Shown here: piece by piece, positions 15,664 through 41,737 of the stretch
Position numbering within the stretch: the stretch's first letter is position 1
How the letters are laid out: the number at the start of each line of letters is the position of its first letter
Assembly: GCA_965208575.1 (NCBI GenBank)
Contig: CBDBOV010000002.1
Span: forward strand, 256,001-320,000
DNA length: 64,000 bases
From: Spirochaetia bacterium
Lineage (GTDB): Bacteria > Spirochaetota > Spirochaetia > SZUA-6 > Bin103
Reading direction: 5' to 3'
Notes under the pieces: generated by a model
Database searches by the model: none
What the model saw: the letters and a program-made list of their open reading frames with translations, nothing else
What the model was told of the DNA's origin: nothing
Made by a program: the position numbers and the translations under genes

Positions 15664-15692
15664 TTGACAACTTTGTAAGATGCGATTATTGT
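15664..15692 (+). promoter_or_regulatory. Sigma70-like promoter for bilABCD, overlapping an ACAA-N2-TTGT palindrome (candidate operator)
   Basis: TTGACA (15664-69), 17-nt spacer, TATTGT (15687-92). AGGAG RBS precedes the ATG at 15758. Confidence 0.65.
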
Positions 15693-15757
15693 GTGAGTCA
15701 CGACGGTGGGGACGGCCCATCGGACGATCTCCGCATCTGCGGACGAAGGAGACTAGA

Positions 15758-16779: not shown

Positions 16780-17248
16780 GATCCTCTGCAGCTCATCGGT
16801 TTGGCATGCCGGTGTCGCAGAGCTCAGGCGACGTGCTGGCGGTTTTCGCGAGAGTGGAGCTTTTCTGCTAGGATCGAAGCGTGAGGCGCGGCGGGTTGAG
16901 GAGTTTGTGTTCTACGACGACATAGATCCGAACGCGCTGAACAATGGAGTTGTCGAAATCGACGGACGTCGACTAGGCGACCTCTGGATGCGCTGTCGGG
17001 AGACAGGGCGGGCTGTCGTAGCCGACGTCCATGTTCATCCTGGTCATTTCCGGCAGAGCGAGTCGGATCGCGCCAATCCCATAATTGCGGAGGTTGGCCA
17101 CATCGCGATTATCCTCCCGGATTTTGTCAAGCGGGAGACTCGCCCCGGTGGAATCGGCGTGTATGAGTACCTTGGCTCGCGCAGTTGGAAGGATCGAAGT
17201 TCCGATCTCCCGTCGCCGTTTCACGTTGGGTGGTGGCCATGGCGCTAG
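16727..17248 (+). CDS. bilC: JAB/MPN metallopeptidase (DUB)
   Basis: RESGAFLLG (catalytic Glu) and ADVHVHP...QSESD (HxH-x7-S-x2-D type). Confidence 0.85.
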   Translation: MGYLIATLARRVFGPQPEILCSSSVWHAGVAELRRRAGGFRESGAFLLGSKREARRVEEFVFYDDIDPNALNNGVVEIDGRRLGDLWMRCRETGRAVVADVHVHPGHFRQSESDRANPIIAEVGHIAIILPDFVKRETRPGGIGVYEYLGSRSWKDRSSDLPSPFHVGWWPWR

Positions 17249-20951: not shown

Positions 20952-23900
20952 ATGAACGTCTTTGAACTCCGGGACCGGCTCGTCGACGACTATCGAAAAT
21001 ACACGCGCAGCTTCATCAAGATCAGAGATCCGCGGATAGAGGAGTTCGTCGATGGCCACCTCGGTGCGGAGGGTTTCTGGCCGGAGCCGCTGCTGCAACT
21101 GAACCCGGCATTCCATCCGGGCGGCACGATTGACGATCTGGTCGCAGAGGGGATTCTGTCGGATGAGTGCTTGCGGATATTCCGCTACCGCGAGTCCTCT
21201 GAGGACCACCGTGGCGGCCGGCTCCTCCTCCACCGCCACCAGCGCGAAGCGATTCTCAAGGCTCACGAGGGGAAGCATTACGTGCTCACGACGGGCACCG
21301 GCTCGGGCAAGAGCTTGGCGTACATTGTGCCGATCGTGGATCGCGTCCTGCGGTCGGGCTCCGGTCGCGGTGTCCAGGCCATCATCGTCTACCCGATGAA
21401 TGCCCTCGCCAACAGCCAGCACGAGGAGCTTGCCAAGTTCATCGACGCCGCCTATCCGCAAGGCGAGGCACCGGTTCGCTTTGCCCGCTACACGGGGCAG
21501 GAGAGGGGCGAGTCACGCGAGACCCTCCGGAGTTCTCCGCCGGACGTGCTCCTGACCAACTACATGATGCTGGAACTGTTGCTCACCCGCCGCGAGGACC
21601 GCGAGCTTGTGCGAGCGGCACAGGGGCTCCAGTACCTCGTGTTCGACGAACTGCATACCTACCGGGGCCGTCAGGGAGCCGATGTCGCGATGTTGATCCG
21701 CCGATGCCGCCACGCCTTCGGCAACCGTGTAATCTGTGTCGGGACCTCGGCCACCATGGCCAGCGACGGTACTACCGACGATCAGCGCCGTGACGTTGCG
21801 GCGGTGTCGCAGTCGCTGTTCGGGGTGGACTTCACGCCGGAACAGGTTATAGGTGAGACGTTGAAGCGGGCGACTCCCGAGGTCGACTTCGACGACGACG
21901 CGGTACGAGCCCCTCTCCGGGCCGCTGTCGTCGGCGATGAGCACCCGCCGGAGGACTACCAACTGTTTCGGCGCCATCCGCTCACCTCTTGGATTGAATC
22001 TACGTTCGGTGTCCACGAAGAGCCCGAAACTGGCGAACTGTTGCGTCAGACACCGCGGAGGCTTCAGGGCAGCGAACTCGACGGACTCCCGAGCGCGGCG
22101 GCGGAGCTCGCACAACAGACGGGAACCGAACCCGACCAGTGTGCGGAGATCCTGCGACGCTGGCTGCTCATGGGGTCGACACTTCGCGAGGATCAGTCGA
22201 GCCGGTTCCCCATCTTTGCCTTCCGGTTCCACCAGTTCCTGACCCGTGGAGACACGGTGTGGGCATCGCTCGAATCGGAGCGACAACGCCATCTGGAGAT
22301 CTCCAAGAAGGCCGCCAAGCCCGGCGAGCCCGACAAACCCCTGTATCCGCTGGTGTTCTGCCGTCACTGCGGAACCGCCTACTACCGCGTCCGTGTCGAA
22401 GCTGACGAGCAGGGCATGATCGCGCTTCCGCGCGACGATGGCGGTGAACATGGTGACGAATTCGTGCAGGACGGATATCTGTACGTTTCCGATGAGTCGC
22501 CGTGGCCCCGGACCGGGGATCCTGCGGAACTCCAACGGTTGCCCGACATGCTCAAAGAAATGACCGCTCGTCACGGAGAACGGATACGCCCCGAGGCCCG
22601 CAAAGATGTTCCGAAGCCATTGTTCGTCGATTCCACCGGCCGCTTCGTTGCAGAGGGGGGAGGCATACCGGCAGCACTGATCCGAGATCCGTTCCTGTTC
22701 TGCCTGGAGCCATCGTGCGGCGTAACGTACACGCGGAGTCAGCGATCGGAGCGGTTCAAGTTGGCAACCCTCGGCGTGGATAATCGGAGCACTGCCACCA
22801 CCATTCTTGCGATGAGGTCGCTCATCCAATTGCAAACCGACCGGGAGCTCGACACTGAAGCACGCAAGCTGTTGAGCTTTACCGACAACAGGCAGGATGC
22901 CTCCCTCCAGGCCGGCCACTTCAATGACTTCGTGCAGGTCGCGCTACTGCGCTCGGCACTCCACCACGCGTGTGTACAAGGCCCGTCCGCAGGTCTCCGG
23001 CATGGCGACTTGTCGCGTTCCGTCGTCAGTGCAATGGAGTTGCCGTTCGAGGAATACGCTGCTGATCCGGAGGTGCGTGGAACCGCGCGCCATCGCACGC
23101 GCGACGCCCTATCCCGGGTGATAGAGTATCTCGTGTATCGCGACCTTGAACGCGGATGGCGCGTGACGGCGCCCAACCTGGAAGATTGCGGCCTGCTCCG
23201 GTTCGACTACGAGGGGCTTGCCGGCGAAGACGGGCTCCTCGGTGAAACGGAGTTGTGGGAGACGGGATTCGGGAACAACGAGGTTCCGCCGCTGCTCCGC
23301 ATGGCGCCCCGGCACGTGCGCGAAGAATTCGTCCGCACGCTGCTCGATCTGCTGCGTCGGCAGCTTGCCGTAAAGGTCGATGTGCTCGACCCGGGCAAGC
23401 AACATGAATTGGTGGAACAAACGAAATTACGCCTCCAGGAAGGCACAGCCTGGTATCTGGACGACGAGCGGGAGTTGACCAACGCAGTCGTCGCTTGGCC
23501 GCGCTCCAGGAGAAAGCGGGAGCGACACGGATTGTTCGTCTCCTCTTACAGCGCCTACGGACAGTACCTCAGGCGTGAGCTTGCCCCTCACCTGGCGCCG
23601 AACCAGCGAGTCAGTCGTGCGGAAACCGACCAAATCATCCGCTTTCTGCTTCTGGCGCTCAAGCGCTATGGCATCGTGGAGCAGGTCAGAGGCGGGAGCG
23701 GCAACGATGGTCCGGGCTATCAGCTCAACGCCGATGCGCTGCGCTGGTTGCCCGGTGCCGGTAAGGATCGCCCGTTCGACCGCACTCGCCTTGCGGACGA
23801 AGGCGGGTTGCCGCTTGAGGTGAACCGCTACTTCGTGGAGTGCTACCGCAGCTTCGTAGACCTCAAGTGCGTCCTCGAAGCACGCGAGCACACTGCGCAG

Positions 23901-26198
23901 GTCACCACGGAGGACCGGCAGGAACGGGAGCAACGGTTTCGGAGAGGAGCCCTGCCGCTCATGTTTTGTTCGCCGACCATGGAATTGGGCGTCGACATCA
24001 AGCAACTGAACCTCGTCAATCTCCGAAACGTGCCGCCTACTCCGGCAAACTACGCGCAACGCAGCGGCCGCGCCGGCCGGAGCGGCCAGCCGGCGCTGGT
24101 GTTTACCTACTGCGCCGGCCGCAGTCCCCACGATCAATACTTCTACCGCGAGCCCGTCAAGATGGTAGCCGGGACGGTGACGCCGCCCCGTATCGACCTG
24201 CGCAACCGCGACCTGATCCGTTCTCACATCCAGGCCATCTGGATGCAGACTGCGAAGCCCGATCTCGGGAAGACGTTGACGAAGGTCCTTGAATTGGCCC
24301 CGGATAGCGGCCTCCTTCCGCTCCCGGTCGCCGACGCGATCAAGGAGGTTCTACGCGATCCGTACCGGCGAGAGGAAGCGCGGTCGCGAGCAGCTCCGGT
24401 GATTGACGAAATCCGCTCGGAGCTCGCCCAGACGAGTTGGTTCCACGACGATTGGGTGGACGATGTGCTCGGTCAGATCGACCTCAACTTCGATGCTGCG
24501 TGCGAGCGCTGGCGCAATCTCTACCGGGCGGCCCGACGGCAACGCAAGCTGCACCACGACATCATCGGCGATCATTCCAGGCCTGAGGCCGAACGTAACC
24601 ACTCCCGCAGATTGCGTGCACAGGCCGAGGCGCAGATTCGCCTCCTTACGGAAGCCGAGGGAATCTACGAGGGCGACTTCTACTCCTACCGCTACTTTGC
24701 CACCGAGGGATTCCTGCCTGGCTACAACTTTCCGCGGCTGCCGGTCTCCGCGTTTGTGCCCGGGCGGCGTGGGAGCAAGGGACGCGACGAATTCATCTCG
24801 CGGCCACGGTTCCTCGCCGTCTCCGAGTTTGGCCCGCGTGCGTTGATCTATCACGAAGGGGCGCGGTATCGCGTCTACAAGGCCAACCTCGACTTCGGAT
24901 CTGATGCGGCCGAGGACACCCGCGACCTCAGCACCGACACGATGAAACGGTGTCCGAGATGCGGATACGCTCATCTTGAGGCGGGCGCCACCAATCTGAG
25001 CGAGGTTTGCGATCGCTGCGGCGCATACCTCGACGATCGGATCGACGGTCTCGTCCAGATGCAGAATGTGAGCCTCAAGCTGGCGCAGCGTATCACGTGC
25101 GACGAGGAAGAACGGCAACGGTTTGGCTACCGGCTGTACACCGCTTACCGGTTCCCGGAAGTCAATGGTCAACTCGATCACAAGGATGCCGAGGTCTACT
25201 GCGACGACTCCTGCATACTCAAGCTCAGCTACGGCGACGCCACAGATCTCTACCGTATCAACCTGGGATGGGCCAACCAGGATGGCTCGCAACCGCCCGG
25301 CTTCAAGCTGGATCTGGAGCGCGGTTATTGGGCGCGCAACCAGGCAGACACGGGCGACCAGGACGACGCGGCCACCCTGACGCACATGCGGCGGGTAGTT
25401 CCCTACGTGCGGGACACGAAGAATGTCCTTGTCATGAAGTTCGATCAGCCTCGCTCCGGCCCGGAGATGGCCGGCCTGCAGGCAGCCTTCAAGCAGGCAA
25501 TCCAGTTGCACTTCCAGATCGAACCGCGCGAGCTCGCCTGCGAAGCGTTGCCCGACACGCGTGACCGACGGGAGATACTGTTCTACGAGGCCGCCGAGGG
25601 CGGCGCTGGCGTCCTCCGCCAGTTGGCCGAAGATCCGTCCGTGCTGCCGGCGCTCGCACGCCGCGCGTTGGAAATCTGTCACTACTCCCCGGACTCACTG
25701 GAAGATCAGGCTGCCGATTGGTGCGGCAAGGCGTGCTACCAGTGCCTGCTCGACTATGGGAACCAGCCGGACCACAAGGATCTGGATCGGGCGCTGATCC
25801 GCGACCTCCTTGCGGCCTTGGGGCGGTCGGAGTGTCGCCCAGCCGGAGGCACCGGTACGCGCAGCGACCGCTTGAACGAGTTACGAAAACGCTGCGACAG
25901 CAAACTTGAACAGCGCTGGCTCGACTGCGCCGACAGGCTCGACGTTCGTCTTCCCAGTGACGCGCAGTATGACCTCCCGAGCCACTTTACGCGCCCTGAT
26001 TTCTTCTACCGCGACGTCAACGCGGCGATCTACGTCGACGGCCCGCCTCATGATGCCGCACACCAGATCCGGGACGACGACATCACCACCCAGGCACTTA
26101 TCGAATTAGGCTACATCGTCATCCGCTTCCATCACACAGACGACTGGGAAACGATATTCCGCCGGCATCCCGATGTGTTCGGAGCGCCGAGCGTATGA
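20952..26198 (+). CDS. Large SF2 DEAD/DEAH helicase with DUF1998 Zn domain and C-terminal Vsr/DUF559-like nuclease (DrmA+DrmB-like fusion)
   Basis: 1748 aa. TTGTGSGKS, YPMNAL, DELH, SAT, MELGVDI, QRSGRAGR, EAAEGGAG, CGKACYQCL and PDFFY...YVDGPPH. GGAGG RBS. Confidence 0.9.
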   Translation: MNVFELRDRLVDDYRKYTRSFIKIRDPRIEEFVDGHLGAEGFWPEPLLQLNPAFHPGGTIDDLVAEGILSDECLRIFRYRESSEDHRGGRLLLHRHQREAILKAHEGKHYVLTTGTGSGKSLAYIVPIVDRVLRSGSGRGVQAIIVYPMNALANSQHEELAKFIDAAYPQGEAPVRFARYTGQERGESRETLRSSPPDVLLTNYMMLELLLTRREDRELVRAAQGLQYLVFDELHTYRGRQGADVAMLIRRCRHAFGNRVICVGTSATMASDGTTDDQRRDVAAVSQSLFGVDFTPEQVIGETLKRATPEVDFDDDAVRAPLRAAVVGDEHPPEDYQLFRRHPLTSWIESTFGVHEEPETGELLRQTPRRLQGSELDGLPSAAAELAQQTGTEPDQCAEILRRWLLMGSTLREDQSSRFPIFAFRFHQFLTRGDTVWASLESERQRHLEISKKAAKPGEPDKPLYPLVFCRHCGTAYYRVRVEADEQGMIALPRDDGGEHGDEFVQDGYLYVSDESPWPRTGDPAELQRLPDMLKEMTARHGERIRPEARKDVPKPLFVDSTGRFVAEGGGIPAALIRDPFLFCLEPSCGVTYTRSQRSERFKLATLGVDNRSTATTILAMRSLIQLQTDRELDTEARKLLSFTDNRQDASLQAGHFNDFVQVALLRSALHHACVQGPSAGLRHGDLSRSVVSAMELPFEEYAADPEVRGTARHRTRDALSRVIEYLVYRDLERGWRVTAPNLEDCGLLRFDYEGLAGEDGLLGETELWETGFGNNEVPPLLRMAPRHVREEFVRTLLDLLRRQLAVKVDVLDPGKQHELVEQTKLRLQEGTAWYLDDERELTNAVVAWPRSRRKRERHGLFVSSYSAYGQYLRRELAPHLAPNQRVSRAETDQIIRFLLLALKRYGIVEQVRGGSGNDGPGYQLNADALRWLPGAGKDRPFDRTRLADEGGLPLEVNRYFVECYRSFVDLKCVLEAREHTAQVTTEDRQEREQRFRRGALPLMFCSPTMELGVDIKQLNLVNLRNVPPTPANYAQRSGRAGRSGQPALVFTYCAGRSPHDQYFYREPVKMVAGTVTPPRIDLRNRDLIRSHIQAIWMQTAKPDLGKTLTKVLELAPDSGLLPLPVADAIKEVLRDPYRREEARSRAAPVIDEIRSELAQTSWFHDDWVDDVLGQIDLNFDAACERWRNLYRAARRQRKLHHDIIGDHSRPEAERNHSRRLRAQAEAQIRLLTEAEGIYEGDFYSYRYFATEGFLPGYNFPRLPVSAFVPGRRGSKGRDEFISRPRFLAVSEFGPRALIYHEGARYRVYKANLDFGSDAAEDTRDLSTDTMKRCPRCGYAHLEAGATNLSEVCDRCGAYLDDRIDGLVQMQNVSLKLAQRITCDEEERQRFGYRLYTAYRFPEVNGQLDHKDAEVYCDDSCILKLSYGDATDLYRINLGWANQDGSQPPGFKLDLERGYWARNQADTGDQDDAATLTHMRRVVPYVRDTKNVLVMKFDQPRSGPEMAGLQAAFKQAIQLHFQIEPRELACEALPDTRDRREILFYEAAEGGAGVLRQLAEDPSVLPALARRALEICHYSPDSLEDQAADWCGKACYQCLLDYGNQPDHKDLDRALIRDLLAALGRSECRPAGGTGTRSDRLNELRKRCDSKLEQRWLDCADRLDVRLPSDAQYDLPSHFTRPDFFYRDVNAAIYVDGPPHDAAHQIRDDDITTQALIELGYIVIRFHHTDDWETIFRRHPDVFGAPSV

Positions 26199-27597
26199 CA
26201 CTCGCCGACATCGAATCCCTGGTTTCGAACGGCGAGTCCGAGCGCCTCGAATTGAAGGCTTCTACTGGCGAACTGCGTACCGGCGTGAGATCGGTGTGTG
26301 CGATGCTCAACCACCGTGGCGGTACTGTGCTGTTCGGCGTCGATCGAAATGGACGGATAGTCGGTCAGTTGGTGAGCGACCAGACCCTTGAGAGCATGGC
26401 GGCGGAGCTAAGCGCGTTGGAACCTCCAGCCTATCCGTCCGTCAGTCGTGTGCCCGTTCAGGCAGGGCGAGAAGTCTTGGTGATCAGCGTGTCGAGAGGA
26501 CAGAATCAGCCTTACAGTCATCGCGGAAGGGCATGGCGGCGGGTAGCCAACGTCAACCAGGGGATGACTCGTGAGGAGTACAACCGAGTACTTATCGAAC
26601 GGCTGCACAGCGATCGCCGGTGGGAAAACGAACCTGCCTCTGGATGGACGGTAGCTGACCTCGATCAGGAAGAGATCCTTCGCACTCTCGACGAAGCTGT
26701 CCGCCGTGGCCGCGCGGACGATCCGGGGACCCGAGATCCTTCGGAAGTGTTACGTGGGTTGGGCCTGATCCGTGGGAGTGATCTGCTTCGAGCGGCGGTC
26801 GTACTGTTCGGCTCGCCTGACCGCGTCGAGAGAGAGTACACCCAGTGCCTGTTGCGGGTGGCGAAGTTCCGAGGAACGGATCGCACCGAGTTTCTGGACA
26901 ACCGGCAGTTTCGAGGCAACGCCTTTGATCTCCTGAGCCGGGCGGAGCGCTTCTACCGGGACAACCTGCCCATAGCAGGACGTGTCGAGCCGGACCTGTT
27001 CCGACGGGTGGACACCCCGCTCTATCCGCCGGAGGCGCTTCGTGAGGCCCTTGCGAATGCTTTCTGCCACCGGGACTACTCGATCGGCGGCGGTTCGGTG
27101 GCGGTTCGGTGGCGGCGGCGATTTATGACGATCGCCTTGAAGTGACCTCTTCCGGCACGCTCCATTTCGGGCTCACCGCCGAAGCGTTGTTTGAGCCCCA
27201 CGAGTCCCTGCCCTGGAACCCATTGATAGCTCAAGTCTTTTATCGTCGGGGAATTATCGAACAGTGGGGTCGAGGAACCATCAAGATGAGGGAACTCGTC
27301 ACAGACGCCGGACTGCCGGCGCCGGAGATCGAGGATGTGGGCGGATGCGTGACCGTACGCTTCAGAACTGGGACGTACGTGCCTACGCACGTGGAGAGAG
27401 AGGTGACCGATCGCCAGAGGGCCATTCTCACCCTGCTCGCGGGAGTACGCGGCGGTCTCGCCCTACGCGAGATCATCCCAGAACTGGAGAAATCTCCCAC
27501 GCCGCGACAGGTGCAAGATGATCTACGCATCTTGCGAACGCTTGGCTTGGCGATGAGCACAGGTCATGGCCGTGGCGCGAGGTGGAAACGCCAATAG
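26195..27597 (+). pseudogene. AlbA_2/Schlafen-like + HATPase_c_4 + wHTH ('RecG-like' regulator), split by an 11-bp tandem duplication
   Basis: GESERLELKAS...CAMLN..GG.VLFGV, YPPEALREALANAFCHRDY, then IYDDRLEVTSSG...NP.IA...IEQWGRG in another frame. GGCGGTTCGGT is repeated at 27089-27110. Confidence 0.85.
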
Positions 27598-27815
27598 TCC
27601 CATTCGTCGGGGGTGGTTGTCTTATTCCGGCCCATTCTGTCTTATTCTCTGAATATATCCTACTAACTTCATATCTATAAATGAATTAGCGCGCATGTTC
27701 TATTCTGTTCTATTTTCTGTCTTATTCCCTATCGAGTGAAATTGAAAATGGGTTATTATCTTCTACGAAATGATTTACGTCATTTGTCTAATTCCGTTCT
27801 ATTCTGTCTTATTTT
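27597..27815 (+). repeat. Second array of the same 10-bp repeats, three clusters separated by AT-rich imperfect palindromes
   Basis: Units start at 27619/27629/27639, 27697/27707/27719 and 27786/27796/27806. Spacer CTAACTTCAT-ATCTATA-AATGAATTAG at 27663-27689. Confidence 0.8.
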
Positions 27816-27965
27816 AGCGATTCTCACACAAGCGAACAGCTATTTCGTAGTCCTCGCAGCTACACGAGCTATTGCCGAACACCCGCTCCGCTGGTCCCGA
27901 GGTTAGCGTAATCCGAATCGCTACAGGGTGTCAGCGTTACGGGCGGGCGGGCCGATATTTGGAAC

Positions 27966-30785
27966 GTGAGTGCAACAAGCCTCTCCGAGGCCGGCACCCT
28001 CGTTCGGGCGCGAGCGCGCGAATGGGTGGTGCTGCCCGACTCGACCGACGAACTGCTGATGCTCCGGCCCGTGGGCGGGCTCGACGAGGAGATTACCGGA
28101 GTCCTGCCGGCGGTGGAACCGGTCGAGTCGGCTACGTTCCGGCTCCCGAGCCGGGAGGACCTCGGCGACTTCACCTCGGGCCGCCTGCTGCGCGACGCGG
28201 CCCGCCTGTCCACCCGCGCCGCCGCCGGACCGTTTCGCAGCTTCGGGCGCATCGCCGTGGAGCCCCGGCCTTATCAACTGGTGCCCCTGATGATGGCGCT
28301 GCGGCTCGACCCGGTGCGCATGCTGATCGCCGACGACGTAGGCATCGGCAAGACCATCGAAGCGTGTCTCATCGCCCGCGAGCTGCTCGACCGGGGCGAA
28401 ATCCGCCGCCTGACGGTGCTCTGTCCCCCGCCCCTTGCCGAGCAGTGGCAGCGGGAGCTGGCGGAGAAGTTCCACATCGAGGCGGAGCTGGTCCTGTCGA
28501 GCACCATCCAGCGTCTGGAGCGCGACCTGAACATCGACGAGTCGGTCTTCGAGCGGCATGCCTTCACCGTCGTTTCGACCGACTTCATCAAGCAGCCCCG
28601 GCGTGCCGAGGACTTCGCGCATCGCTGTCCCGAGTTTGTCATCGTTGACGAGGCCCACGGCTGCACACTGGCTGCCGGCGCGGGCCGCGGCCGCCAACAG
28701 CGACATGACCTGTTGCGCCGCGTGACCGCGGACCCCGAGCGCCACGTCCTGCTGGTCACGGCAACGCCGCACAGCGGCAACGAGGACGCGTTTCGCTCCC
28801 TGCTGAGTCTGCTTGACGAGGAGTTCGCCGGCCTGCCGGCAGACCTGGACCGCACCGGGCGCGAGGGCGTCCGCCGCCGGCTCGCGCGTCACCTCGTGCA
28901 GCGCCGCCGCGCCGACATTCGTCGCTACCTCGAGACCGACACGGAGTTCCCGAAGCGCAGGGACAAGGAGGCTACCTACGGTTTCAGTCCGACGTATCGG
29001 AAGCTGTTCGACGACATCCTGGCCTTTGCGCGGGAGTACGTGGCGGTGGACGGCGAACAGCGTCGGCGGCGGGTGCGCTACTGGTCGGCGTTGGCCCTGC
29101 TGCGGTGCGTGTCATCCAGTCCTGCCGCCGCCGCGGCGACCCTGCGCAGCCGCACGGCTGCCGAGGGGGCCGACGAGGCCGACGTGGATGAGGTAGGCCG
29201 CCGCACGGTGCTCGACCAGTCCGACGACGATGACGCGGTGGCGCCGGACTTCAGCCCCGGCTCGGACACCGAACACAGTCCGCAAACGATGCGCCGCCGC
29301 CTGCTGGAGTTCGCGCGTCGCGCGGAGGCCATCGACCATGCCGCGGATCGTAAGCTGCAAGGTGCTGTCCGCGAGATCAAGGCGCTCCTGAAGGATGGGT
29401 TTCATCCGGTCGTTTTTTGCCGCTTCATCGATACGGCGGAGTACGTCGCCCGTCATCTGCGCGAAGTGCTCTCCCGCACGACGGTGCAAGCGGTGACCGG
29501 CTTGCTCCCCCCTGCCGAGCGTGAGGCCCGCATCCAGTCACTCGTCGACGAGGGAGGGCGGTTCGTCCTGGTCTGCACCGACTGCCTCTCCGAGGGCATC
29601 AATCTGCAAGAACACTTCGATGCCGTCCTCCATTACGACTTGGCGTGGAACCCCACTCGCCACGAGCAGCGCGAAGGCCGGGTGGATCGGTTCGGGCAAC
29701 GCGCGCCCGAGGTGCGCGTGGTTACCTACTTCGGCACCGACAACCCGATCGACGGCGTGATCCTCGATGTCCTGATCCGCAAACACAAGAGCATCAAGAG
29801 CGATCTCGGGGTGACCGTGGCGGTTCCCGGCTCCAGCGAGCGGATCGCGGAGGCGCTGTTCGAAGGGGCGCTGTTCCGCGATCAGGAAGGCGCGCAGCAG
29901 CTCACTCTCGATTTCATTGACGAGTACGATGCGCAAAAGCAGAAGCTGCACGACGAGTGGGAGGACGCCCGCGACCGCGAGCGGGAGAGCCGCTCCCGCT
30001 TTGCCCACCACACGATCAATCCTCAGGCGGTAGCCGACGAGCTGGCCGACGTGCGCGAGGCTATCGGCGGTAGCGCGGACGTGACCCGATTCTTTGCCGA
30101 TGTGCTTCGGACGGCCAACGTGCCGATCCAGCTCAACGGGAAGGCAGAGGTCCACATCAGCAACGAAACGCCGCGTACGCTACGCCAGGCGATCGGTCGC
30201 GACGAGCCGTTTGCGGGGCGCTTCGACCTGCCGCTCCAGGAGGACGAGATTTACCTCGGACGTACGAGCCCGATGATCGAAGGCTTGGCGAGTTGGACGC
30301 TCGATCAGGCGCTCGACCCGGAGTCTCGCGATATCGGGCCCGTGGCAGCGCGCTGCGGGGCGACCTTCACCTCTGCAGTGGACACGCGTACTACGCTGCT
30401 GGTCACGCGCTTCCGTTACCACCTGAGAACCGGTGGAACCGGCGGCGAGACGATTCTGTGCGAAGAGATCGTACCGCTGGCGTGCACCGGTCCGTCGGCG
30501 GCGCCGGACTGGCTGGCGCCGGATGACAGCGAGCGCCTCATGGCTGCCCGGCCAGAACGCAATCTCCTCCGGACGGCAATCGATCAGCAACTCAACGTGT
30601 TGCTACCTTCGCTGCCGACCTTTCAGGAGCGTCTGGAGAACATCGCGACCCAACGTGCGAACGCGCAACTGGACGCGCACCGGCGCGTACGCACGGCGAG
30701 CAGGACGCGAGGCCGCATCGCCATCGAGCCGGCGCTCCCGGTGGATATCCTTGCCGCCTACGTTCTGTTGCCGAGGTTGGACTGA
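27966..30785 (+). CDS. SNF2-family helicase (DrmD-like)
   Basis: GTLVRARAREWVV N-terminus, LIADDVGIGKT, DEAH, TATPHSG, SEGINLQ, WNPTRHEQREGRVDRFGQ. Confidence 0.9.
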   Translation: MSATSLSEAGTLVRARAREWVVLPDSTDELLMLRPVGGLDEEITGVLPAVEPVESATFRLPSREDLGDFTSGRLLRDAARLSTRAAAGPFRSFGRIAVEPRPYQLVPLMMALRLDPVRMLIADDVGIGKTIEACLIARELLDRGEIRRLTVLCPPPLAEQWQRELAEKFHIEAELVLSSTIQRLERDLNIDESVFERHAFTVVSTDFIKQPRRAEDFAHRCPEFVIVDEAHGCTLAAGAGRGRQQRHDLLRRVTADPERHVLLVTATPHSGNEDAFRSLLSLLDEEFAGLPADLDRTGREGVRRRLARHLVQRRRADIRRYLETDTEFPKRRDKEATYGFSPTYRKLFDDILAFAREYVAVDGEQRRRRVRYWSALALLRCVSSSPAAAAATLRSRTAAEGADEADVDEVGRRTVLDQSDDDDAVAPDFSPGSDTEHSPQTMRRRLLEFARRAEAIDHAADRKLQGAVREIKALLKDGFHPVVFCRFIDTAEYVARHLREVLSRTTVQAVTGLLPPAEREARIQSLVDEGGRFVLVCTDCLSEGINLQEHFDAVLHYDLAWNPTRHEQREGRVDRFGQRAPEVRVVTYFGTDNPIDGVILDVLIRKHKSIKSDLGVTVAVPGSSERIAEALFEGALFRDQEGAQQLTLDFIDEYDAQKQKLHDEWEDARDRERESRSRFAHHTINPQAVADELADVREAIGGSADVTRFFADVLRTANVPIQLNGKAEVHISNETPRTLRQAIGRDEPFAGRFDLPLQEDEIYLGRTSPMIEGLASWTLDQALDPESRDIGPVAARCGATFTSAVDTRTTLLVTRFRYHLRTGGTGGETILCEEIVPLACTGPSAAPDWLAPDDSERLMAARPERNLLRTAIDQQLNVLLPSLPTFQERLENIATQRANAQLDAHRRVRTASRTRGRIAIEPALPVDILAAYVLLPRLD

Positions 30786-30786
30786 C

Positions 30787-33700
30787 GTGGCGCGGCGCAC
30801 GCAAGACTTCCAGACCATCCGCTCCGAGGGCGGCCTGCTGCCACTGGACCTGTTGCGGCGAGTGCTGGACCCGCATTCCGGCTTGCCGGGGACCATGGCG
30901 GAAGACTACCACCTGGCTCCTGGGGAACGGCTGAACGAGATCATCACCCAATCCTGGAACCGCCTTGCGAAGCATTGGGACGAGTTTCGCCAGGCTACGG
31001 CGAATCTGCCCACGGGTGCCGCGGGGACTGGCCTTACCAACGACAAGTGGAGTCTGCCACTGCTGCGCGAGTTGGGATTCGGTTTCCTGCCGGTGACCGC
31101 CGGGCCCGAGCTGGATGGCCGCACCTTTCCCATCGGACGTTTCTCCGGTCCGGTCCCGATTCATCTGGTAGGCTGCGGTCTGTCGCTTGATCGCCGAGCC
31201 GCCGGGCAACGCGGTGCGGCGGCGGCAAACCCGCACGGCCTCGTACAGGAGTTCCTCAACCGCAGCGACGCGCACCTGTGGGCGATCGTGTCGAACGGGC
31301 TGCGCCTGCGCGTGTTGCGCGACAACCAGGCGCTCTCGCGGCAATCGTTTCTCGACTTCGATCTCGAAGCGATGTTCTCGGGCGAGGTCTATTCCGACTT
31401 CGTGCTCTTGTGGTTGGTGGCGCATGCAACCCGCTTCATGCCCCGCGACGGCGATCGTCCGGAGACCTGCCGGCTGGAGCAATGGACTCAAGAGGCGGAG
31501 AGGATCGGAACTCGTGCTCTCGAGGGGTTGCGCGGCGGGGTCGAGCGCGCACTTGCCCATCTCGGCGCCGGCTTCACCAGCCATCCCAATAACGAGGTTC
31601 TGCGCGAAGCGTTGCGCACCGGATCGCTCACCCCGACCGGCCTCCACGAGCAGCTCCTGCGGGTCGTATACCGGCTGATCTTCCTGTTTGTGGCGGAGGA
31701 CCGCACCCTCGACGGGCGGTCGCTGCTGCATCCGCCGGACGACTCCGCCGCGGCACGGATCGCACGCGAGCGCTACGCCGAGCATTACGGCACCGCCCGG
31801 CTGCGGCGACTGGCGGGACGGATCAAGGGCTCGCGTCACGGCGACCTCTGGCGCCAATTCCGGTCTCTCGTCGCACCGCTCTCGGGGGATCGGAGGTCGG
31901 CGACGATCCGCCGGCGCTTGGCGCTCCCCGAACTGGGCAGCTTTCTCTGGGATCCGGCATCGACTGCCGCGTTGAACGACACCGAGCTGACCAACTACGA
32001 CTTTCTCGAAACTCTGCGGCACCTCGCCTATACCCGGCAGGACAAGATGCTCCGTCCGGTGGACTACCACAATCTCGGCGCCGAGGAACTGGGCGGCGTG
32101 TACGAGAGCCTGCTCGCGCTCACGCCGCAAGTGAACGGAGGCGGCGGACACTTCTCCTTCGCCGAGTTCACCGGCAACCGGCGCAAGACGTCAGGTTCCT
32201 ATTACACCCCTGATGCGCTGGTGCAGTGCCTGCTGGACTCCGCTCTCGATCCGGTAGTCGAGGCTGCCGTGGCGGGCAGGACCGGTGCCGAAGCGGAACA
32301 GGCGATACTCGACCTAAAGGTATGCGATCCGGCGGTGGGGTCAGGTCACTTCCTGGTTGGCGCCGCGCACCGGCTTGCCCGCCACCTGGCCCGCATCCGC
32401 GCCTACGCGGCCGGCGAGAGCGAGCCGTCGCCGCTGCTCTACCAGCGCGCGTTGCGCGACGTGATCGGGCGCTGCCTGTACGGCGTGGACGTGAACCCGA
32501 TGGCCGCCGAGCTGTGCCGCGTGGGCCTGTGGCTCGAAGCGCTGGAGCCGGGCAAGCCGCTGTCCTTCCTCGACCGCCACATCCGCGTCGGCAACAGCCT
32601 GCTCGGGGCCACGCCGGAGTTGATCGCCGCCGGCCTGCCAGACGCGGCGTTCAAGCCGATCCAGGGGGACGACAAGAACGTCTGCTCAGCATTTAGGAAA
32701 CGGAACAAGACCGAACGCGAGCACGGCCAACACGACCTGGGCTTCATTGCCGAGTCTGGCGAGGAGTACGACTCGCTGGTCTCGCGCAGCCGCAGCATCG
32801 ACCACGGGCCCGATGAAATCCTGGAGGAAGTACACACCAAGGAGGCTCAGTTCCGGCGCCTGCAAGAGTCCGTGGACTACCGGGACGCTCAACAGATTGC
32901 GGATGTATGGTGCGCGGCATTCGTCTGGCCCAAGCGACCGGGCGTGGTCGACGCACCGACTACGGACACGCTACGCCGCCTCCGCGAAGGTGCCGAGGCG
33001 TTGGCCCCAGCACAACGTGAAGAGATGGAACGGATCGTGGGCCGCTACCAGTTCTTCCACTGGGATCTCGCATTCCCCGAGGTGTTCGCCGCCGGCGGCT
33101 TCGACTGCGTGCTCGGCAACCCACCGTGGGAGCGGGTGAAACTCGTGGAGAAGGAGTGGTTCGCAGAACGCAACTCCGAGATCGCGAATGCCCCGAACGC
33201 CGCCGCGCGCAAGCGGATGATCGGTGACCTGCAACACCAGTTCCCGGAGCTGCACGCCGGCTTCGCGGCAGCACTGCGCGAGAGCAATGGGACCAGCCGC
33301 CTGCTACGCGACAGCGGCCGTTATCCATTCTGCGGACGCGGTGACATCAACCTCTACGCGGTGTTCGCCGAGGCGATGCGGAGCATCGTAAACGAGCGCG
33401 GTCGCGCTGGCTGCGTACTCCCGACTGGGGTCGCCACCGACGATACTACCAAGTTCTTCTTCCAGGACGTCGTAGAAAAGCGGTCGCTGGTTAGTCTCTT
33501 CGATTTCGAGAACAGGAGAGGATTGTTTCCTGACGTGGACAGCCGGATGAAGTTCTGTCTCTTCACCGCTGGAAGCGGAGCCACGCCGACAAGTGAACGC
33601 GCAGAGTTCGTGTTCTTCGCCCATGCCGTCGACGAGTTATTCGACTCTGAACGCCGGTTCACGCTCTCCCCGGATGAGATCACTCTGCTCAACCCCAACA

Positions 33701-35909
33701 CCCATACCTGTCCTATCTTCCGGTCGCGCAAGGACGCCGAGCTGACCAAGGCGATCTACCGCCGCGTTCCGGTGCTCGTTCGCAATGCCCGAGACGCTCG
33801 ACCAGAACGGAATCCCTGGGGCATACGGTTCAACCGGATGTTTGACATGTCCAACGACTCGAGCATTTTAAGAAGAGGGAGGAACTTGAAGCCGACGGCT
33901 GGAGCCTCGAAGGAAGCGTATTCCACAGGGACGGGGAGGAATGCCTGCCGCTGTACGAAGCAAAGATGGTCCATCACTTCGATCATCGCTGGGCAAGCTT
34001 CGACGCGTCCGCAAGCGAGGAGGTTGTCGCCGACGTACCACTGGAGCACAAGCGGGACCCTGATTTCAAGGCGATGCCAAGGTATTGGGTGGACGCACGC
34101 GAGGTCTACCTCCGCAGCGCTGACTTGCCGAGGGGCTTGCTGACCGCGCTCCGCAACCGCGATACCTCCATGATAGTGTTGGGCGTCGCCCACCTGCTGT
34201 TCGCTCACCGGTTACGGCAGCCGTTCGACGATCAGGGAAGCGCATCGGAGGGACTATTCGCCGAGTGGATCAGGTTCGCAGAGAACTATCCCTTCGCTCG
34301 CGGTCTGAGACCGACGCAGATGGGATTGTGCGGGAACAATCCCGGCACAATGCCCGCCAACTGGATGGAGTTGGCTGCCGACTCCGGGCGGCAACGGCCG
34401 ACACCGCGTTCTCTTGAGCGTATCGCGCCGGGACCGGAGTTCTTACCGGCGGCACCGCTGGACGAGGTGAATACTGATCCACGCAACATCACACTTTGGT
34501 ACGCAGCCGACGAAGCAGCAGTGTCCGGGACGCTGCAGTACGCCGCTCGGTATCGACATTTGTTCGAACCTATGCCCAAACTGGAGAATGAGGACGACGT
34601 GCTGACCTGCGCCGAGCAGTGGTTGAGACAGACCACCCCGCGCTGGTTGATGGGCGTCCGAGACATCGCCCGGAGCACGGATGAGCGAACCGTCGTTGGC
34701 GGGGTGTTCCCGCTCGCGGCTGTTGGAAACAATCTTCCAGTGTGGAAGGCATCGACGAGCTCTTCGGTGGCTGTGCCCGCGTTGCTGTCGAGTCTTGCTT
34801 GTGACTACGCTGCTCGGCTCAAGGTGGGTGGCACGCACCTGAATTTCTTCATCGCCAAGCAGATCCCAGTCCTTACTCCCTACCTACTCGAACAGCCGGC
34901 ACCTTGGAGCCGCACCGCCGAAACTGTCCGCGACTGGCTGCTTCCCCACATTCTGGAGTTGACGTACACGACCTGGAGCCTCGAACCGTTCGCCTCCGAC
35001 TGTCGATGGAACGGTCCGCCGTTCCGCTGGGATGGGGAGCGCCGCTTCCTGCTGCGCTGCGAGTTGGATGCCGCCTTCTTTCACCTGTACCTGCCGGCGG
35101 ATGAGGACGGTGACTGGCAGCCGCCACGCCAAGTCGGCGGTCATCGTCACACTGAGACGGCCGAGCAACGAGCCGAGCTCACGCGCCACTTCCCCACGCC
35201 GCGGGACGCGGTCGACTACATCATGGACACCTTCCCGATCATCCGCCGCAAGGACGAGTCGCGATACGGGGAGTACCGCACGAAACGTGTCATCCTCGGC
35301 ATCTACGACGCGATGCAGACCGCCGCCGCAACCGGCGAGCCCTACCGAACCGTCCTCGATCCACCGCCCGCCGATCGGAGCTGTTGTCACCCGCCTCGCA
35401 TCGCGGTGCTCGATCTTGCGTCGCTGGCCGATGGCGAGTGGACTAGGCCGGAAGGCGATCGGACTGGTACTGAGGCCGCCGTTCTCGCAGCGGTGTTGAA
35501 AGCGAACGGCGGCCCTGCTCCGATACGTACGGTGCGCCTCACCGCCTTGCTGGCGCTCGAACCGCGGCTGCTCACACCCTCCCTCCCGTCGGAGGATGCG
35601 ATTCACTGGAGACGGTTGATTGGACCCGAGGCAACGGCGCTCGACTCGACCTCGGTGCCACTCCAGCCGCCGGCCAACCATCCGTGGGGCAGCGCCGTGC
35701 AGCAGCTTCGGGGAACGGGACGTCTGATTGAGGACTTGGCGGCCGGAACGTGGGCGCCGGGATCCGGTCTGAACGCGATCCGCACCGATGGATGGCCTGA
35801 CGGACGCGTGAACATGGTGCTGCAAACCCTGCTCCGTCGCGACGCCGAGCAGATCGTTCGCACGCTTCCCGCGAACGTTCGCAACTGGGTCAATGCCGAA
35901 GCAGCTTGA
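30787..35909 (+). CDS. Type IIG/Eco57I-like N6-adenine DNA methyltransferase-(endonuclease), DrmMI-like; apparent 1-nt frameshift near 33862-33870
   Basis: RRKTSGSYYTP, DPAVGSGHFL (motif I), GNPPW (motif IV), CPIFRS. After NDS the expected FKKREELEADGW...LPLYEAKMVHHFDHRW continues in another frame into ORF 33966-35909 (STDERT, ELDAAFFHLY, GEYRTKRVIL). Confidence 0.85.
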
Positions 35910-37863
35910 ACTGCTGGAGCGCCCGGGTCTGGAAATCCGACCGGGGACGGGCCGCTCCGAGCCACGACTGTGGGTACGCCGTCTCGTCATCTGGAGCGAG
36001 CCGGGCGTCGTGCTCCGCGAGATCCGTCTGCGCCCCGGCCTCAACATCATCTGGGCGCCCGACCTCGCCGACCGCCCCGGTGGGTTGGAGGAACACGCTC
36101 CACCGGGGCACGGGAGTGGTAAGACACTGTTCTGTCGCCTGCTCCGTTACTGCCTCGGCGAGCACCGAGTCGCTCCTGACGATCAGCGTGAGAAGATCGT
36201 CGCTGCGTTCCCCAACGGGCTGGTCGGTGCCGAGATCATGGTCGACGGTACGCAGTGGGCCGTAGTGCGCCCTATCGGATCCACCAGGAAGCACTTTGCC
36301 GTCCGGGACTCCGCGGTCGATGCGATAAACACGGACGCCATCCCGACGGGCATGGATCCATTTCTTGAGGCCGTAACGACCGGTTTTCTGTCGAACGACA
36401 TAGCGGGGCTGGTTCCGGTCGGCGACCGGCAGAGTGCATGGCTGGTCGCGCTCGCCTGGCTTGCTCGTGATCAGGAATGCCGCTTCGACAAGCCCCTGGA
36501 TTGGCGCTCGGCGGACTCCGACTCCGGCTCTCCCACACGCGGGCTCTCGGTCCAGCAACATCTGGATGCCATGCGTGCATTGGTCGGCGCGCTCGATCCC
36601 GAAGAGACCAGGCTCAACGCGGAAATACGCAGAATTGCGACCCAACGGGACCAGGCTGATCGAGAAGCGACCCAACGAACGAGAGAAGCCGAGCGGCTGC
36701 GGACACGCCTCACCACGGAACTTGGCCAAGGAGCGGATGATCTGCCACCGGCCCGAATGGCCATCGAGCCGCTTCGGAAGGAGGCGATCCACCAGTTGGC
36801 CAAGGTGTCTCAGGTTGATTCCACGGACAGTCTCTTGGACATTGAGCGATTGAGATCGGAGGCCGATGAAGCCGGCGTGCGTGTGGAGGATCTGAAAAGG
36901 AGACTGGCCGTGCTCGACGCACGTATCCCGGAGATGGAGAGGCTCATCGCTCTCATCAAGGGAGAATTCCCCGTAGCCTCATTTCGCACAGTGGCGGCGG
37001 AGCAACCGGTATGTGAGATCTGCGAAGTGCCGATAGACCGCGTGCTTGCCGAGGGCTGCAGACTGTCCCACAAGCTCCCTGATCTCGACGCAGCGAAGCG
37101 TCGGATGGAGCAACTGGAGAAAGCACTCGCCGCAGAATCGAATCGACTCCGGCAATCTTTGGATGAACGAGAAGGGCTCGTCAACGAACTTCATCCGGCG
37201 GAGCAGGATCAAGTGTCTTTGGCCAGAGACCTGCAGGCAGCAGAGCGTGTGCGCGATGCCAGAACTGAGGCATGGTACGAATCGCGGAGACTGATTGACG
37301 ACGTCGACCTACTCGAGAGATTGCTTGTCGAGCGAGAACAGCTCCAGTCCCGGCTCGCGGACCTGGAGCAGATGATCCACGAAAAACGAACCCAAAAGGG
37401 CTCCTTCCGCGACGCGCATACGACAACGTTCAACCGCCTTTCCCGATTCTTCGATGCGATCCTCCGCGAACTGCTCGGGCCGGATGCGAGAGGTCGGATG
37501 TTCCTCGACGGAAACGGCCTCGGACTGTCGGTCGAGTTGGGTGGCGAGCGATCCACCGCCGCCATCGACTCACTCAATGTCATCGCCTTCGACCTCGCCG
37601 CGATGTGCATGAGCATCGAAGGTCGGGCTCACCAACCAGCATTTCTCATCCACGACAGCCCACGCGAAGCCGACCTCGGAATCAGCATCTTCCAACGCCT
37701 GTTCAACGTGGTGCGTAGATTGGAGCTCGAAGGAGAGCAACCTCTATTCCAGTACATCATCACTACCACGACTAGTCCTCCGCAGGGGTTGCAGAAGGAG
37801 CCCTGGACTGCCGCCATTCTCGGCGGAAGTACCCACGAACGGCTGCTTCAGAGAGACCTTTGA
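35893..37863 (+). CDS. SMC/Rad50-like ABC ATPase with central CxxC zinc hook (ABC three-component/Lamassu LmuB-like)
   Basis: GLNIIWA...GHGSGKT Walker A, WLARDQE Q-loop region, coiled coils with CEIC at the apex, FLIHDSPRE Walker B, FQYIITTT. Overlaps the MTase stop by 17 nt. Confidence 0.75.
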   Translation: MPKQLELLERPGLEIRPGTGRSEPRLWVRRLVIWSEPGVVLREIRLRPGLNIIWAPDLADRPGGLEEHAPPGHGSGKTLFCRLLRYCLGEHRVAPDDQREKIVAAFPNGLVGAEIMVDGTQWAVVRPIGSTRKHFAVRDSAVDAINTDAIPTGMDPFLEAVTTGFLSNDIAGLVPVGDRQSAWLVALAWLARDQECRFDKPLDWRSADSDSGSPTRGLSVQQHLDAMRALVGALDPEETRLNAEIRRIATQRDQADREATQRTREAERLRTRLTTELGQGADDLPPARMAIEPLRKEAIHQLAKVSQVDSTDSLLDIERLRSEADEAGVRVEDLKRRLAVLDARIPEMERLIALIKGEFPVASFRTVAAEQPVCEICEVPIDRVLAEGCRLSHKLPDLDAAKRRMEQLEKALAAESNRLRQSLDEREGLVNELHPAEQDQVSLARDLQAAERVRDARTEAWYESRRLIDDVDLLERLLVEREQLQSRLADLEQMIHEKRTQKGSFRDAHTTTFNRLSRFFDAILRELLGPDARGRMFLDGNGLGLSVELGGERSTAAIDSLNVIAFDLAAMCMSIEGRAHQPAFLIHDSPREADLGISIFQRLFNVVRRLELEGEQPLFQYIITTTTSPPQGLQKEPWTAAILGGSTHERLLQRDL

Positions 37864-37978: not shown

Positions 37979-38725
37979 ATGACTTCCCCGTCCACACACG
38001 AGTTGCAGCGTTCAGCAGCAGGAATGAAAGGGTTCGATGCCGAAGAATTCCATCAAGGTGACCAGGTGCACTTGACGGACAATCAGTCGAAGAATCTCAA
38101 GCGGGCAATTTGCTGTTACAGCTTTCCGTTTGTGACATGCGACTTCAAGAACGGCCAGGAGCGTGTTCACGACAGCATGAACGGTGTCGAGAAAGTGATA
38201 CATGAGCAGTTGACGTCGGGAGACTCAACGATTGTCAAGGACGGGCTCTCGAATGTCCTGTACTGGGGTTACGCCACTGCCGGATACAGACATAACCGTG
38301 TGAGCAAGTTCAGACACGAGGTGTCGGCAACACAATTGAACGCAGTCATCCACCTATTCCACGAACCAATGTCCCTGTGTCCCTCGAAGGTAGCATGCTG
38401 CGGTCTTCCACAATTCTCTAGAGTCTCGTTCATTTCGAAAACGCTGATGTTTCTTGATCCTCGGCGATTTGTGGTTCTTGACACCAAGATCGCATCACTT
38501 CGAAATGTGAGAAGAGGGACGCTATTCGACGACCTGAAGGCATCAACAACCATTCGAGCAACCGGGGGCAACGACTCGGTGTATGAGGCGTGGTGTTGTT
38601 TCTGCGTGCAAGTCGGTGAGGAACTCGGAGTGAGAGCCGTCGATGTCGAGCGTGGGATATTCCAGATGGTGCAATGGGGAATGCGTAAACACGCTGCCGA
38701 CATCTGCACCCGCCACCCGGATTAG
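37979..38725 (+). CDS. Putative HhH/OGG-fold DNA glycosylase-like protein
   Basis: VLYWG, GLPQFSRVSFISKTLMF, VVLD and Y..WC...AVDVERGIF pattern resembles OGG-like HhH proteins; lower GC than the flanks. Confidence 0.5.
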   Translation: MTSPSTHELQRSAAGMKGFDAEEFHQGDQVHLTDNQSKNLKRAICCYSFPFVTCDFKNGQERVHDSMNGVEKVIHEQLTSGDSTIVKDGLSNVLYWGYATAGYRHNRVSKFRHEVSATQLNAVIHLFHEPMSLCPSKVACCGLPQFSRVSFISKTLMFLDPRRFVVLDTKIASLRNVRRGTLFDDLKASTTIRATGGNDSVYEAWCCFCVQVGEELGVRAVDVERGIFQMVQWGMRKHAADICTRHPD

Positions 38726-41292: not shown

Positions 41293-41737
41293 GCCATCTC
41301 CCAGGTGCGTACCTACGGCAGGTGGAAGTCGGCGCGCCACCGTCGATCTCCGCAATGTGCTGCCGGGCGGCCTGGACGCCTATCACCACGCACTCCGGCA
41401 GCCAGGTGCTGGCCACGCGCGGCCCGTCCGCATCGGCTGCGTGGAACAGGGGAACATGGGGAAGTGATACCTTGGAGCTGCCTCGCACTTCGCTGTGTCG
41501 GCCGCAAGTGACGGGCATGTCCACGCGATCGACGCTACTCGGTCAGCGCCGGTCCCGCCGACTTTGTCTTCTCTCCACTGGACCTCGCGGATTGTGATCG
41601 AACGCCCGGCGGGATTCGCTCGCCCGACACCCGCGTATCTTAGCGCGGATCAAACTTGACCCTGCGCACCGTCTCTACTGATCATGGTGCCATGGCCATC
41701 CGTTGCAGCGGCGCCTCCGGCAAGAGGACAACTACCC

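Follow-up and report, generated by a model that had tools for sequence, protein, structure and literature searches.

A winged-helix tail on methyltransferases and Type I specificity subunits is strictly paired with an LmuB-like ABC ATPase in a spirochaete ARMADA Type I operon and its relatives

The stretch of DNA analysed here (the window) comprises 64,000 nucleotides of a Spirochaetia bacterium contig (CBDBOV010000002.1, positions 256,001 to 320,000), and positions are counted from its first letter. A single co-directional operon, with all of its genes on the forward strand, occupies 20952-37863 within a defence island, and its last two genes are the subject of this report. The first of them (30787-35909, with the stop codon TGA at 35907-35909) encodes a PglX/DrmMI-like N6-adenine methyltransferase that carries an extra C-terminal domain of 170 residues, here called the tail. 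The second (35893..37863) encodes an LmuB-like ABC/SMC-type ATPase of 656 amino acids with a putative zinc hook. The ATG of the ATPase gene at 35893 is 14 nt before the methyltransferase TGA, and the two genes overlap by 17 nt.

The tail (35397..35906) comprises a Pro-rich linker and a two-lobed winged-helix domain, which is LmuC-like by fold as judged from VIA matches of an AlphaFold2 (AF2) model. It lies in the open reading frame (ORF) 33966-35909, the first part of which (33966..35396) is the C-terminal core of the methyltransferase; the core aligns to the methyltransferases of relatives and matched no Pfam or PADLOC family. After ...GEPYRTVLDPPPADRSCCHPP the ORF continues with the 170 residues of the tail. 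A plain ARMADA I methyltransferase from a Rhodococcus plasmid ends 23 residues past its match to the core query, and in the methyltransferase of locus L021, which is of the type with an MmeI target recognition domain (TRD), residue 1250 of 1439 corresponds to position 1327 of the 1347 positions in the PADLOC DrmMI profile, leaving about 189 residues unmatched. The early stop of the Rhodococcus enzyme and the extent of the L021 protein beyond the DrmMI model identify the tail as an add-on.

The AF2 model of the tail (pLDDT 90.1, pTM 0.84) has three helices, a winged-helix unit of helix and beta-hairpin at WGSAVQQLRGTGRLIEDLAAGTWAPG, and three more helices; the winged helix is formed by helix 111-122 followed by a hairpin of strands 126-129 and 134-137. 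Alignment of this model with VIA-align to 48,161 representative chains, with a second look at 521 chains, gave a best Z of 5.8. Among the chains listed, the whole tail (model residues 34-183) was aligned only by LmuC chains from three entries, namely 9uxh_D (Z 5.7, 131 residues aligned, chain length 170, rmsd 5.1 Å), 9ny5_C (Z 5.6, 129 aligned, chain length 171, rmsd 4.7 Å) and 9hqx_d (Z 5.4, 129 aligned, chain length 164, rmsd 5.0 Å), which were taken as LmuC from chain size and entry titles, and the other rows covered one winged helix of 60-105 residues. The fold matches agree with the tail being an LmuC-like two-lobed unit and fall short of proof. Other searches were less informative: 18 tail sequences compared with Pfam at E<=10 gave chance or other-domain matches only, the PDB sequence search with the tail profile returned chance rows only (E>=0.22), and the matches in the ESM Atlas, to fragments of beta-lactamases and transpeptidases and scoring at most 0.87, were uninformative.

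The ATPase matches the PADLOC LmuB models PDLC03859 (3.7e-19) and PDLC03863 (2.4e-18). Its Walker A motif GHGSGKT (residues 72-78, 36106..36126) has G72, H73, G76 and K77 invariant among 24 aligned ATPases, and a Walker B-like motif FLIHDSPRE (residues 584-592, 37642..37668), in which H587 to L595 (HDSPREADL) are invariant in the same alignment, is shared with a DUF2326 ATPase of Priestia. The putative zinc hook, CEIC-x11-C-x3-H (residues 374-393, 37012..37071), has C374, C377 and C389 invariant in the 24 sequences, with H393 in the window protein. In the AF2 model (pLDDT 86.6), which consists of two head halves and an antiparallel coiled coil, the hook cysteines are at the coiled-coil apex, between helices 311-370 and 398-528, where they would be expected to bind zinc. 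Foldseek with this model ranked the integrative model of YydD-YydB first (9a6c_A, E 5.3e-16). Six LmuB chains, which belong to four entries and have E values between 4.7e-15 and 1.8e-11, took ranks 2-7, and a further chain, of LmuAB-DNA, was at rank 11; SMC, Rad50, JetC and MukB ranked below the six LmuB chains. The C-terminal head is also related to the Priestia DUF2326 protein (hhalign probability 99), and some relatives of the ATPase are annotated by NCBI as DUF2326 proteins.

The original prediction for this DNA, made from the letters alone, had described a domain of about 170 residues added to the methyltransferase C-terminus, with a winged helix-turn-helix-like pattern near its end and overlapped by the gene of a zinc-hook ABC ATPase. 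These features are borne out by a tail past the end of related enzymes, a helix and hairpin in a confident AF2 model, the gene overlap, and the presence of Walker A, the Walker B-like motif and the apex residues C374, C377, C389 and H393.

Tail and ATPase are an obligate pair. A scan of metagenomes with a tail-only alignment and the pattern T[AET][GS]WP[DE]GRA returned 80 loci, and in 75 of them an ATPase homologue (phmmer E 1e-18 to 1e-225) starts at or over the stop codon of the tail-carrying gene, the carrier. As for the remaining five, the contig of L044 breaks off after ATPase residue 31, only 21 nt are left behind the carrier in L014 and L060, and L047 and L075 have a truncated tail. Among 72,556 plasmids the full-length ATPase was found in 8 records and the tail in the identical 8, and a query with the methyltransferase core found 73 plasmid records, at least 65 of which have a related methyltransferase and neither tail nor ATPase. 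In genome contigs the tail was upstream in four of four ATPase loci. Seven distant methyltransferases from the phylum of the window have neither tail nor ATPase, and the same applies to the plain ARMADA I methyltransferase from the Rhodococcus plasmid. These counts agree with the expectation, raised with the original prediction, that methyltransferases carry the extension only when this ATPase follows.

A scan of viral contigs with the ATPase gave four loci, one of which (L099) has the tail. In another, L102 (2460-8965), an ATPase of 28% identity is preceded by a SNF2 helicase and by a methyltransferase of Eco57I/MmeI type. The tail of this methyltransferase is a different one, of about 150 residues, which is not recognised by the tail profiles and has an hhalign probability below 1 against the tail profile. 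The L102 pair fits co-divergence of tail and ATPase, and its tail may be a second adaptor family.

The pairing is widespread, and occurs in several bacterial phyla and on large plasmids. An exhaustive phmmer search with a 186-residue tail query found 182 cluster representatives at E<=1e-3, and in 119 of the 150 representatives listed the match ends at most 12 residues from the protein end, the remainder being partial or visibly truncated matches. The short representatives look like fragments by eye, and a free form of the tail is possible. Among the 74 representatives of carriers of 300 residues or more, 45 were scanned with Pfam; Methylase_S (Type I HsdS) was found in 16 of these, Eco57I/N6_Mtase in 13 and MmeI_TRD only in two, with single matches to ABC_tran and, weakly, to a HicB-like family, and the other 12 had no Pfam family. 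There are thus three carrier classes, PglX/DrmMI-like methyltransferases, MmeI-TRD methyltransferases and Type I HsdS. Most carriers are PglX/DrmMI-like, with a SNF2 helicase homologue upstream in 46 of the 80 metagenome loci, and the MmeI_TRD-type methyltransferases account for eight loci. Five complete Type I operons were found, in which hsdR and hsdM are followed by the gene of an embedded YhcG nuclease, the tail-bearing hsdS and the ATPase gene. Damage by mobile elements was also observed in relatives: in L003 (56-1096) an unrelated inserted ORF has taken the place of the N-terminal half of the tail, and in L009 (4098-4754) a DDE_3 transposase lies inside the methyltransferase.

The gene after the ATPase is in most relatives that of a nuclease. 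In the 65 loci with at least 800 nt after the ATPase, an HNH_2 protein of about 255 residues is encoded there in 50, and in 45 its ORF starts at most 32 nt from the last ATPase codon. This protein may be the nuclease of the module. In the HNH_2 proteins (L010-L084; e.g. L042 8457-9233 and L097 12974-13750) the HNH_2 domain is C-terminal and is preceded by another domain that is also conserved. Locus L097, on the Mesorhizobium plasmid NZ_CP080527.1, is an intact operon of five genes. The 15 loci without HNH include the closest ATPase relatives of the window, which have a gene for a helix-turn-helix and Peptidase_M78 protein instead, and also HsdS loci; in two of three HsdS loci examined a PDC-S18 gene (NucS_C + DUF5655) follows the ATPase. 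The NucS_C + DUF5655 proteins are encoded at 8446-9408 in L080 and 8446-9375 in L083, the latter copy matching PADLOC PDC-S18 at 1.1e-136, and on the corresponding strand of the third locus, L081, an ORF of this kind is absent. The window itself has no HNH homologue by tblastn. The original prediction had stated that no free effector was present, which is right for the window and wrong for the family.

A complex of tail and ATPase was predicted with ESMFold2 from the alignments of both proteins. The interface score ipSAE was 0.50 (runs of 0.50, 0.53 and 0.44) against 0.00 for the best control; the runs share at least 90% of their contacts, and the pLDDT of the partner is at least 74. In the calibration of the score, 116 of 157 solved complexes pass the mark, as do 2 of 215 mismatched pairs; of these passes, only 18 of the solved complexes but both of the mismatches are at 0.60 or under. 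Since LmuB-LmuC complexes have already been solved, the pass may reflect likeness to these. An interface, which the original prediction had named as a check, is predicted, with a score that is weak by the tool's calibration.

The genes upstream in the operon indicate the system to which the methyltransferase belongs. The first (20952..26198) encodes a YprA/DruE-like DExH helicase of 1748 residues, with Pfam matches to DEAD (3.9e-27), Helicase_C (3.6e-12) and MZB (DUF1998; 2.5e-11), no Vsr domain in the Pfam scan at E<=0.001, and DruE as its best PADLOC match (2.5e-112). A SNF2 helicase of the BrxHII/DrmD-like kind (939 residues, 27966..30785) has the Pfam domains Helicase_C and SNF2-rel_dom and matches PADLOC 'DpdE' PDLC02853 (1.4e-240) and DrmD (7.3e-82); against NCBIfam DrmD it scores 299 bits, under the cut-off of 610 bits. 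The order YprA-like helicase, BrxHII-like SNF2 helicase and PglX-like methyltransferase (20952-26198, 27966-30785, 30787-35909) is that of ARMADA Type I, the gene content and order of which are defined in section 5 of Bell et al. (bioRxiv 10.1101/2025.09.15.676423). The YprA homologue of ARMADA Type I is further characterised by falling in the ARMADA I clade and by a Vsr-type nuclease at its C-terminus, a domain that the Pfam scan did not show in the helicase of the window. The host operon is therefore ARMADA Type I and not a classical restriction-modification (R-M) system, and the R-M enzyme of the original prediction is replaced by a PglX-like methyltransferase of such an operon.

The methyltransferase of the window has a broken frame. 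Its part before the break (30787..33865, from a GTG start) matches Pfam Eco57I (1.4e-16) and N6_Mtase (1.6e-07) and PADLOC DrmMI (6.5e-60), and near 33865 a frameshift of 1 nt (33860..33870, ...GAGCATTTTAAG...) moves the reading out of the frame of 33751 and into that of 33750, which leaves the tail in the C-terminal ORF, 33966-35909. The extension placed by the original prediction on the methyltransferase C-terminus is present, on a gene with a broken frame. An intact relative, P0003 (1689 residues), reads through the site. In Logan contigs from four runs of one sample, which is possibly the source sample, the letters at the frameshift are identical (depth 8.5-34, 0 differences), and the break is therefore present in the reads of that sample. 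A programmed frameshift is unlikely as judged by eye, as ATTTTAAG is not an X XXY YYZ heptamer. Given the frameshift, the local methyltransferase copy, and with it the local system, may be inactive.

Other genes in and around the operon were noted. A small Schlafen/AlbA_2 gene (26195..27145; Pfam SLFN_AlbA_2 2.7e-16) lies between both helicase genes; none was seen at the corresponding position in the plasmid relatives, and the viral-contig locus L099 has another such gene (8953-10293) after the ATPase. Directly past the ATPase, an ORF of 248 residues (37979-38725) has a weak OGG-like glycosylase match (PF21790, 26.9 bits against a cut-off of 27 bits). It was considered as a local effector and is treated as a neighbour, since no homologue was found at E<=1e-5 in 84 related loci (L001-L004, L006-L085). 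Upstream of the operon, at 15680-18576, are Bil-type ubiquitin-like defence genes (PADLOC BilA 1.8e-34, BilC 1.6e-60, BilD 1.9e-115). Downstream, a group II intron-type reverse transcriptase (39877-41217, RVT_1 8.4e-32) stands between the ARMADA operon and Avs3a (41684-47977), a protein of 2097 residues with a full-length PADLOC match of 2785 bits; with Avs3a alongside the other defence systems, the region is recognisable as a defence island.

That tail and ATPase are strictly paired on carriers of three unrelated kinds, that their genes overlap and that they resemble LmuC and LmuB is best explained by the tail being an adaptor that tethers a Lamassu-type ATPase to a polypeptide reading the DNA target, and we regard this as probable. 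The last 170 residues of the methyltransferase would then be a separate winged-helix domain on a flexible linker, acting as a docking subunit for the LmuB-like ATPase, corresponding to LmuC and probably also contacting DNA. Tail and ATPase together would constitute a portable two-part module, added at the C-terminus of the target-reading polypeptide in three methylation-based defences. In such an arrangement an ATPase dimer would ride on the specificity subunit, and when this subunit is on unmodified foreign DNA, or the ATPase at a DNA end, ATP-driven engagement of the heads would clamp the DNA. Clamping would in turn switch on a nuclease, which would be the HNH protein in most relatives and the own nuclease of the host system in HNH-less versions such as that of the window. 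It is a tentative and still doubtful extension of this reading that a portable LmuB/LmuC-type SMC sensor is hard-wired to the specificity subunits of at least three methylation-based defences, ARMADA I, MmeI-TRD methyltransferases and Type I R-M systems. In the hybrid immunity that would result, the reading of methylation would license, or be guarded by, an SMC-type DNA clamp, and this clamp would control a nuclease, for example HNH; immunity of R-M type and of Lamassu type would then be one machine and not two neighbours.

Several results weigh against the adaptor reading. The likeness of the tail to LmuC is one of fold only, and the rmsd values of 4.7-5.1 Å come with Z scores that are tied with those of single winged helices such as cullin WHB; the VIA tool warns that a Z below about 8 is common, for which reason the likeness is unproven. 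Foldseek of the extension, named with the original prediction as a check, gave no PDB match at E<=0.001, with top rows (MarR, MukE) at E 0.6-1.4. The tail sequences have no fitting Pfam, PADLOC (E<=10) or NCBIfam family, and hhalign of the tail profile with a middle-component-like protein of 160 residues, encoded upstream of the Priestia DUF2326 ATPase, gave a probability below 1. For the ATPase, the profile found no solved LmuB among PDB sequences at E<=1, and the relation to LmuB must be distant since it is not found by the sequence profile alone; Pfam DUF2326 is below its cut-off (E 0.0013, 18.9 bits against 28.7 bits). No LmuA model matched among the 13 window proteins scanned with PADLOC, which speaks against an LmuA-like effector. 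The complex score is weak, and the local methyltransferase is frameshifted. In addition, ARMADA Type II is reported to act directly and without abortive infection (abstract of 10.1101/2025.09.15.676423), a mode of action for which an extra sensor is not needed. Of the resemblance to a Lamassu/ABC-3C module in the original prediction, the part on the ATPase is supported, which is LmuB-like by PADLOC and Foldseek. The part on the tail is tentative: among the chains listed only LmuC chains span it, and it has no sequence, Pfam or PADLOC match to LmuC or to ABC-3C middle components.

The alternative that survives best, though we think it unlikely, is that the tethered ATPase guards the specificity subunit, watching its state without helping it. 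Once the R-M-type complex is blocked or removed by an anti-restriction protein of a phage, the ATPase would be freed and would fire a nuclease, HNH or another neighbour, as a second line of defence. The anticodon nucleases PrrC and RloC are said to relate in this guard-like way to Type I enzymes. The tether is always on the subunit that DNA mimics would hit, a TRD-bearing methyltransferase or HsdS, and a guard would find its nuclease encoded after the ATPase in most relatives, as HNH_2 (50 of 65 loci) or, in HsdS loci, as PDC-S18, although PADLOC lists PDC-S18 as a single-gene candidate which may be an independent neighbour. PMC12663957 describes a Lamassu effector that is kept inactive until the sensor fires. 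However, the window lacks the HNH gene, the ATPase model has heads and coiled coil only with no toxin domain, and PADLOC gave neither a PrrC nor an RloC match. It also counts against a guard that, to our knowledge, no surface sensing anti-restriction proteins is known.

The adaptor reading can also be set against a simpler one, in which the tail is only an additional DNA-binding or autoregulatory winged helix and the ATPase is a co-inherited operon partner that it does not bind. This would account for the fold matches being mostly to DNA-binding winged helices (MarR, PadR, F-93, ORC) and for the weakness of the predicted interface, but we find it very unlikely, because carriers of three unrelated kinds have tail and ATPase together and related methyltransferases that lack the ATPase also lack the tail, because the methyltransferase stop and the ATPase start overlap, and because the diverged ATPase of L102 is accompanied by a diverged tail. 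It is highly improbable that the pair is an independent Lamassu-like system which sits inside R-M-type operons and had its LmuC gene fused upstream by a functionally meaningless accident. BREX, DISARM and Type I operons do often harbour additional defence genes (10.1101/2024.01.29.577857), and the gene order is that of Lamassu; against this, 31 of the 45 scanned carriers have R-M families, fusions are found in all three classes of carrier and have been retained over ATPase identities of 28-73%, and PADLOC found no LmuA-like gene.

The effectors that Lamassu sensors are known to control are free proteins, and R-M-type systems are regarded as acting on their own. If the tail is the adaptor that we propose, the recurrence and strict pairing of its fusion would mean that sensing of SMC type can be physically joined to the reading of self and non-self by methylation. 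The module would be an undescribed accessory of ARMADA Type I, and a tail that can be deleted or transplanted would offer a handle on what LmuB-like ATPases sense.

The module can be compared with several known systems. Hma consists of a helicase, an m5C methylase (HmaB) and an ATPase, as given in PMC8565338. It resembles the window in being a three-part operon of helicase, methylase and ATPase, and the helicase of the window matches HmaA (5.2e-54, PADLOC); Hma was rejected since the methyltransferase of the window is an Eco57I-type N6-adenine enzyme and neither it nor the ATPase matches HmaB or HmaC. DISARM class 1, with separate DrmA and DrmB, the PLD nuclease DrmC, DrmD and DrmMI, was likewise rejected, as helicase and DUF1998/MZB are fused here, no PLD gene was seen in the operon, and DrmD is under its cut-off.

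PrrC and RloC each link an ABC ATPase, which in RloC has a zinc hook, genetically and functionally to a Type I enzyme. The window ATPase differs in having no anticodon-nuclease domain in the AF2 model and no PADLOC match to either protein, and the tie is here a fused adaptor domain on HsdS or methyltransferase. ABC-3C systems reportedly consist of a DUF2326 ATPase, a middle component and a CTD-effector, as set out by Krishnan and co-workers in 2020. The C-terminal head of our ATPase is homologous to the DUF2326 ATPase of Priestia, which also has a small upstream gene; unlike ABC-3C, the match to Pfam DUF2326 is under the cut-off, the tail has no Pfam match (E<=10, by sequence only) and there is no CTD-effector.

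With ARMADA Type I the operon shares a YprA-like helicase, a BrxHII-like SNF2 helicase and a PglX-like methyltransferase in equal order, and it differs from it by the tail and ATPase, which plain ARMADA I methyltransferases do not have. The main text of the ARMADA preprint (10.1101/2025.09.15.676423) has no mention of ATPase, SMC, HNH or Lamassu, and in its four supplement files, which are in part incomplete, 'ATPase' and 'Lamassu' occur 0 times and 'SMC' is found in locus tags and strain names. Among the literature titles and abstract openings surveyed, none points to a fusion of LmuB/LmuC type with a methyltransferase or HsdS, a 2020 classification of ABC ATPases that is possibly relevant being outside this scope, and the PNAS Lamassu paper does not contain 'methyltransferase', 'HsdS' or 'fused'.

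The closest comparison is with Lamassu (LmuA-LmuC-LmuB; DdmABC in V. cholerae and LmuACB in S. enterica). According to PMC12663957, LmuC is encoded directly before LmuB, binds the LmuB coiled coils and touches DNA, and LmuA1B2C1 senses DNA ends. Unlike in Lamassu, the LmuC-like unit is here part of a methyltransferase or HsdS polypeptide instead of a free protein, the HNH gene of the relatives is after the ATPase and not before it, and there is no LmuA, the Lamassu effector whose conserved C-terminal domain binds LmuB. There is also no sequence match between tail and LmuC or between the ATPase and solved LmuB, and the CxxC hook is kept in the window ATPase whereas the LmuB of V. cholerae is described without one (PMC12663957). 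In common with Lamassu, the module has an SMC/Rad50-like ABC ATPase with a coiled coil, a nuclease partner in most relatives, and a small winged-helix unit encoded immediately before the ATPase, so that the succession of tail and ATPase corresponds to that of LmuC and LmuB.

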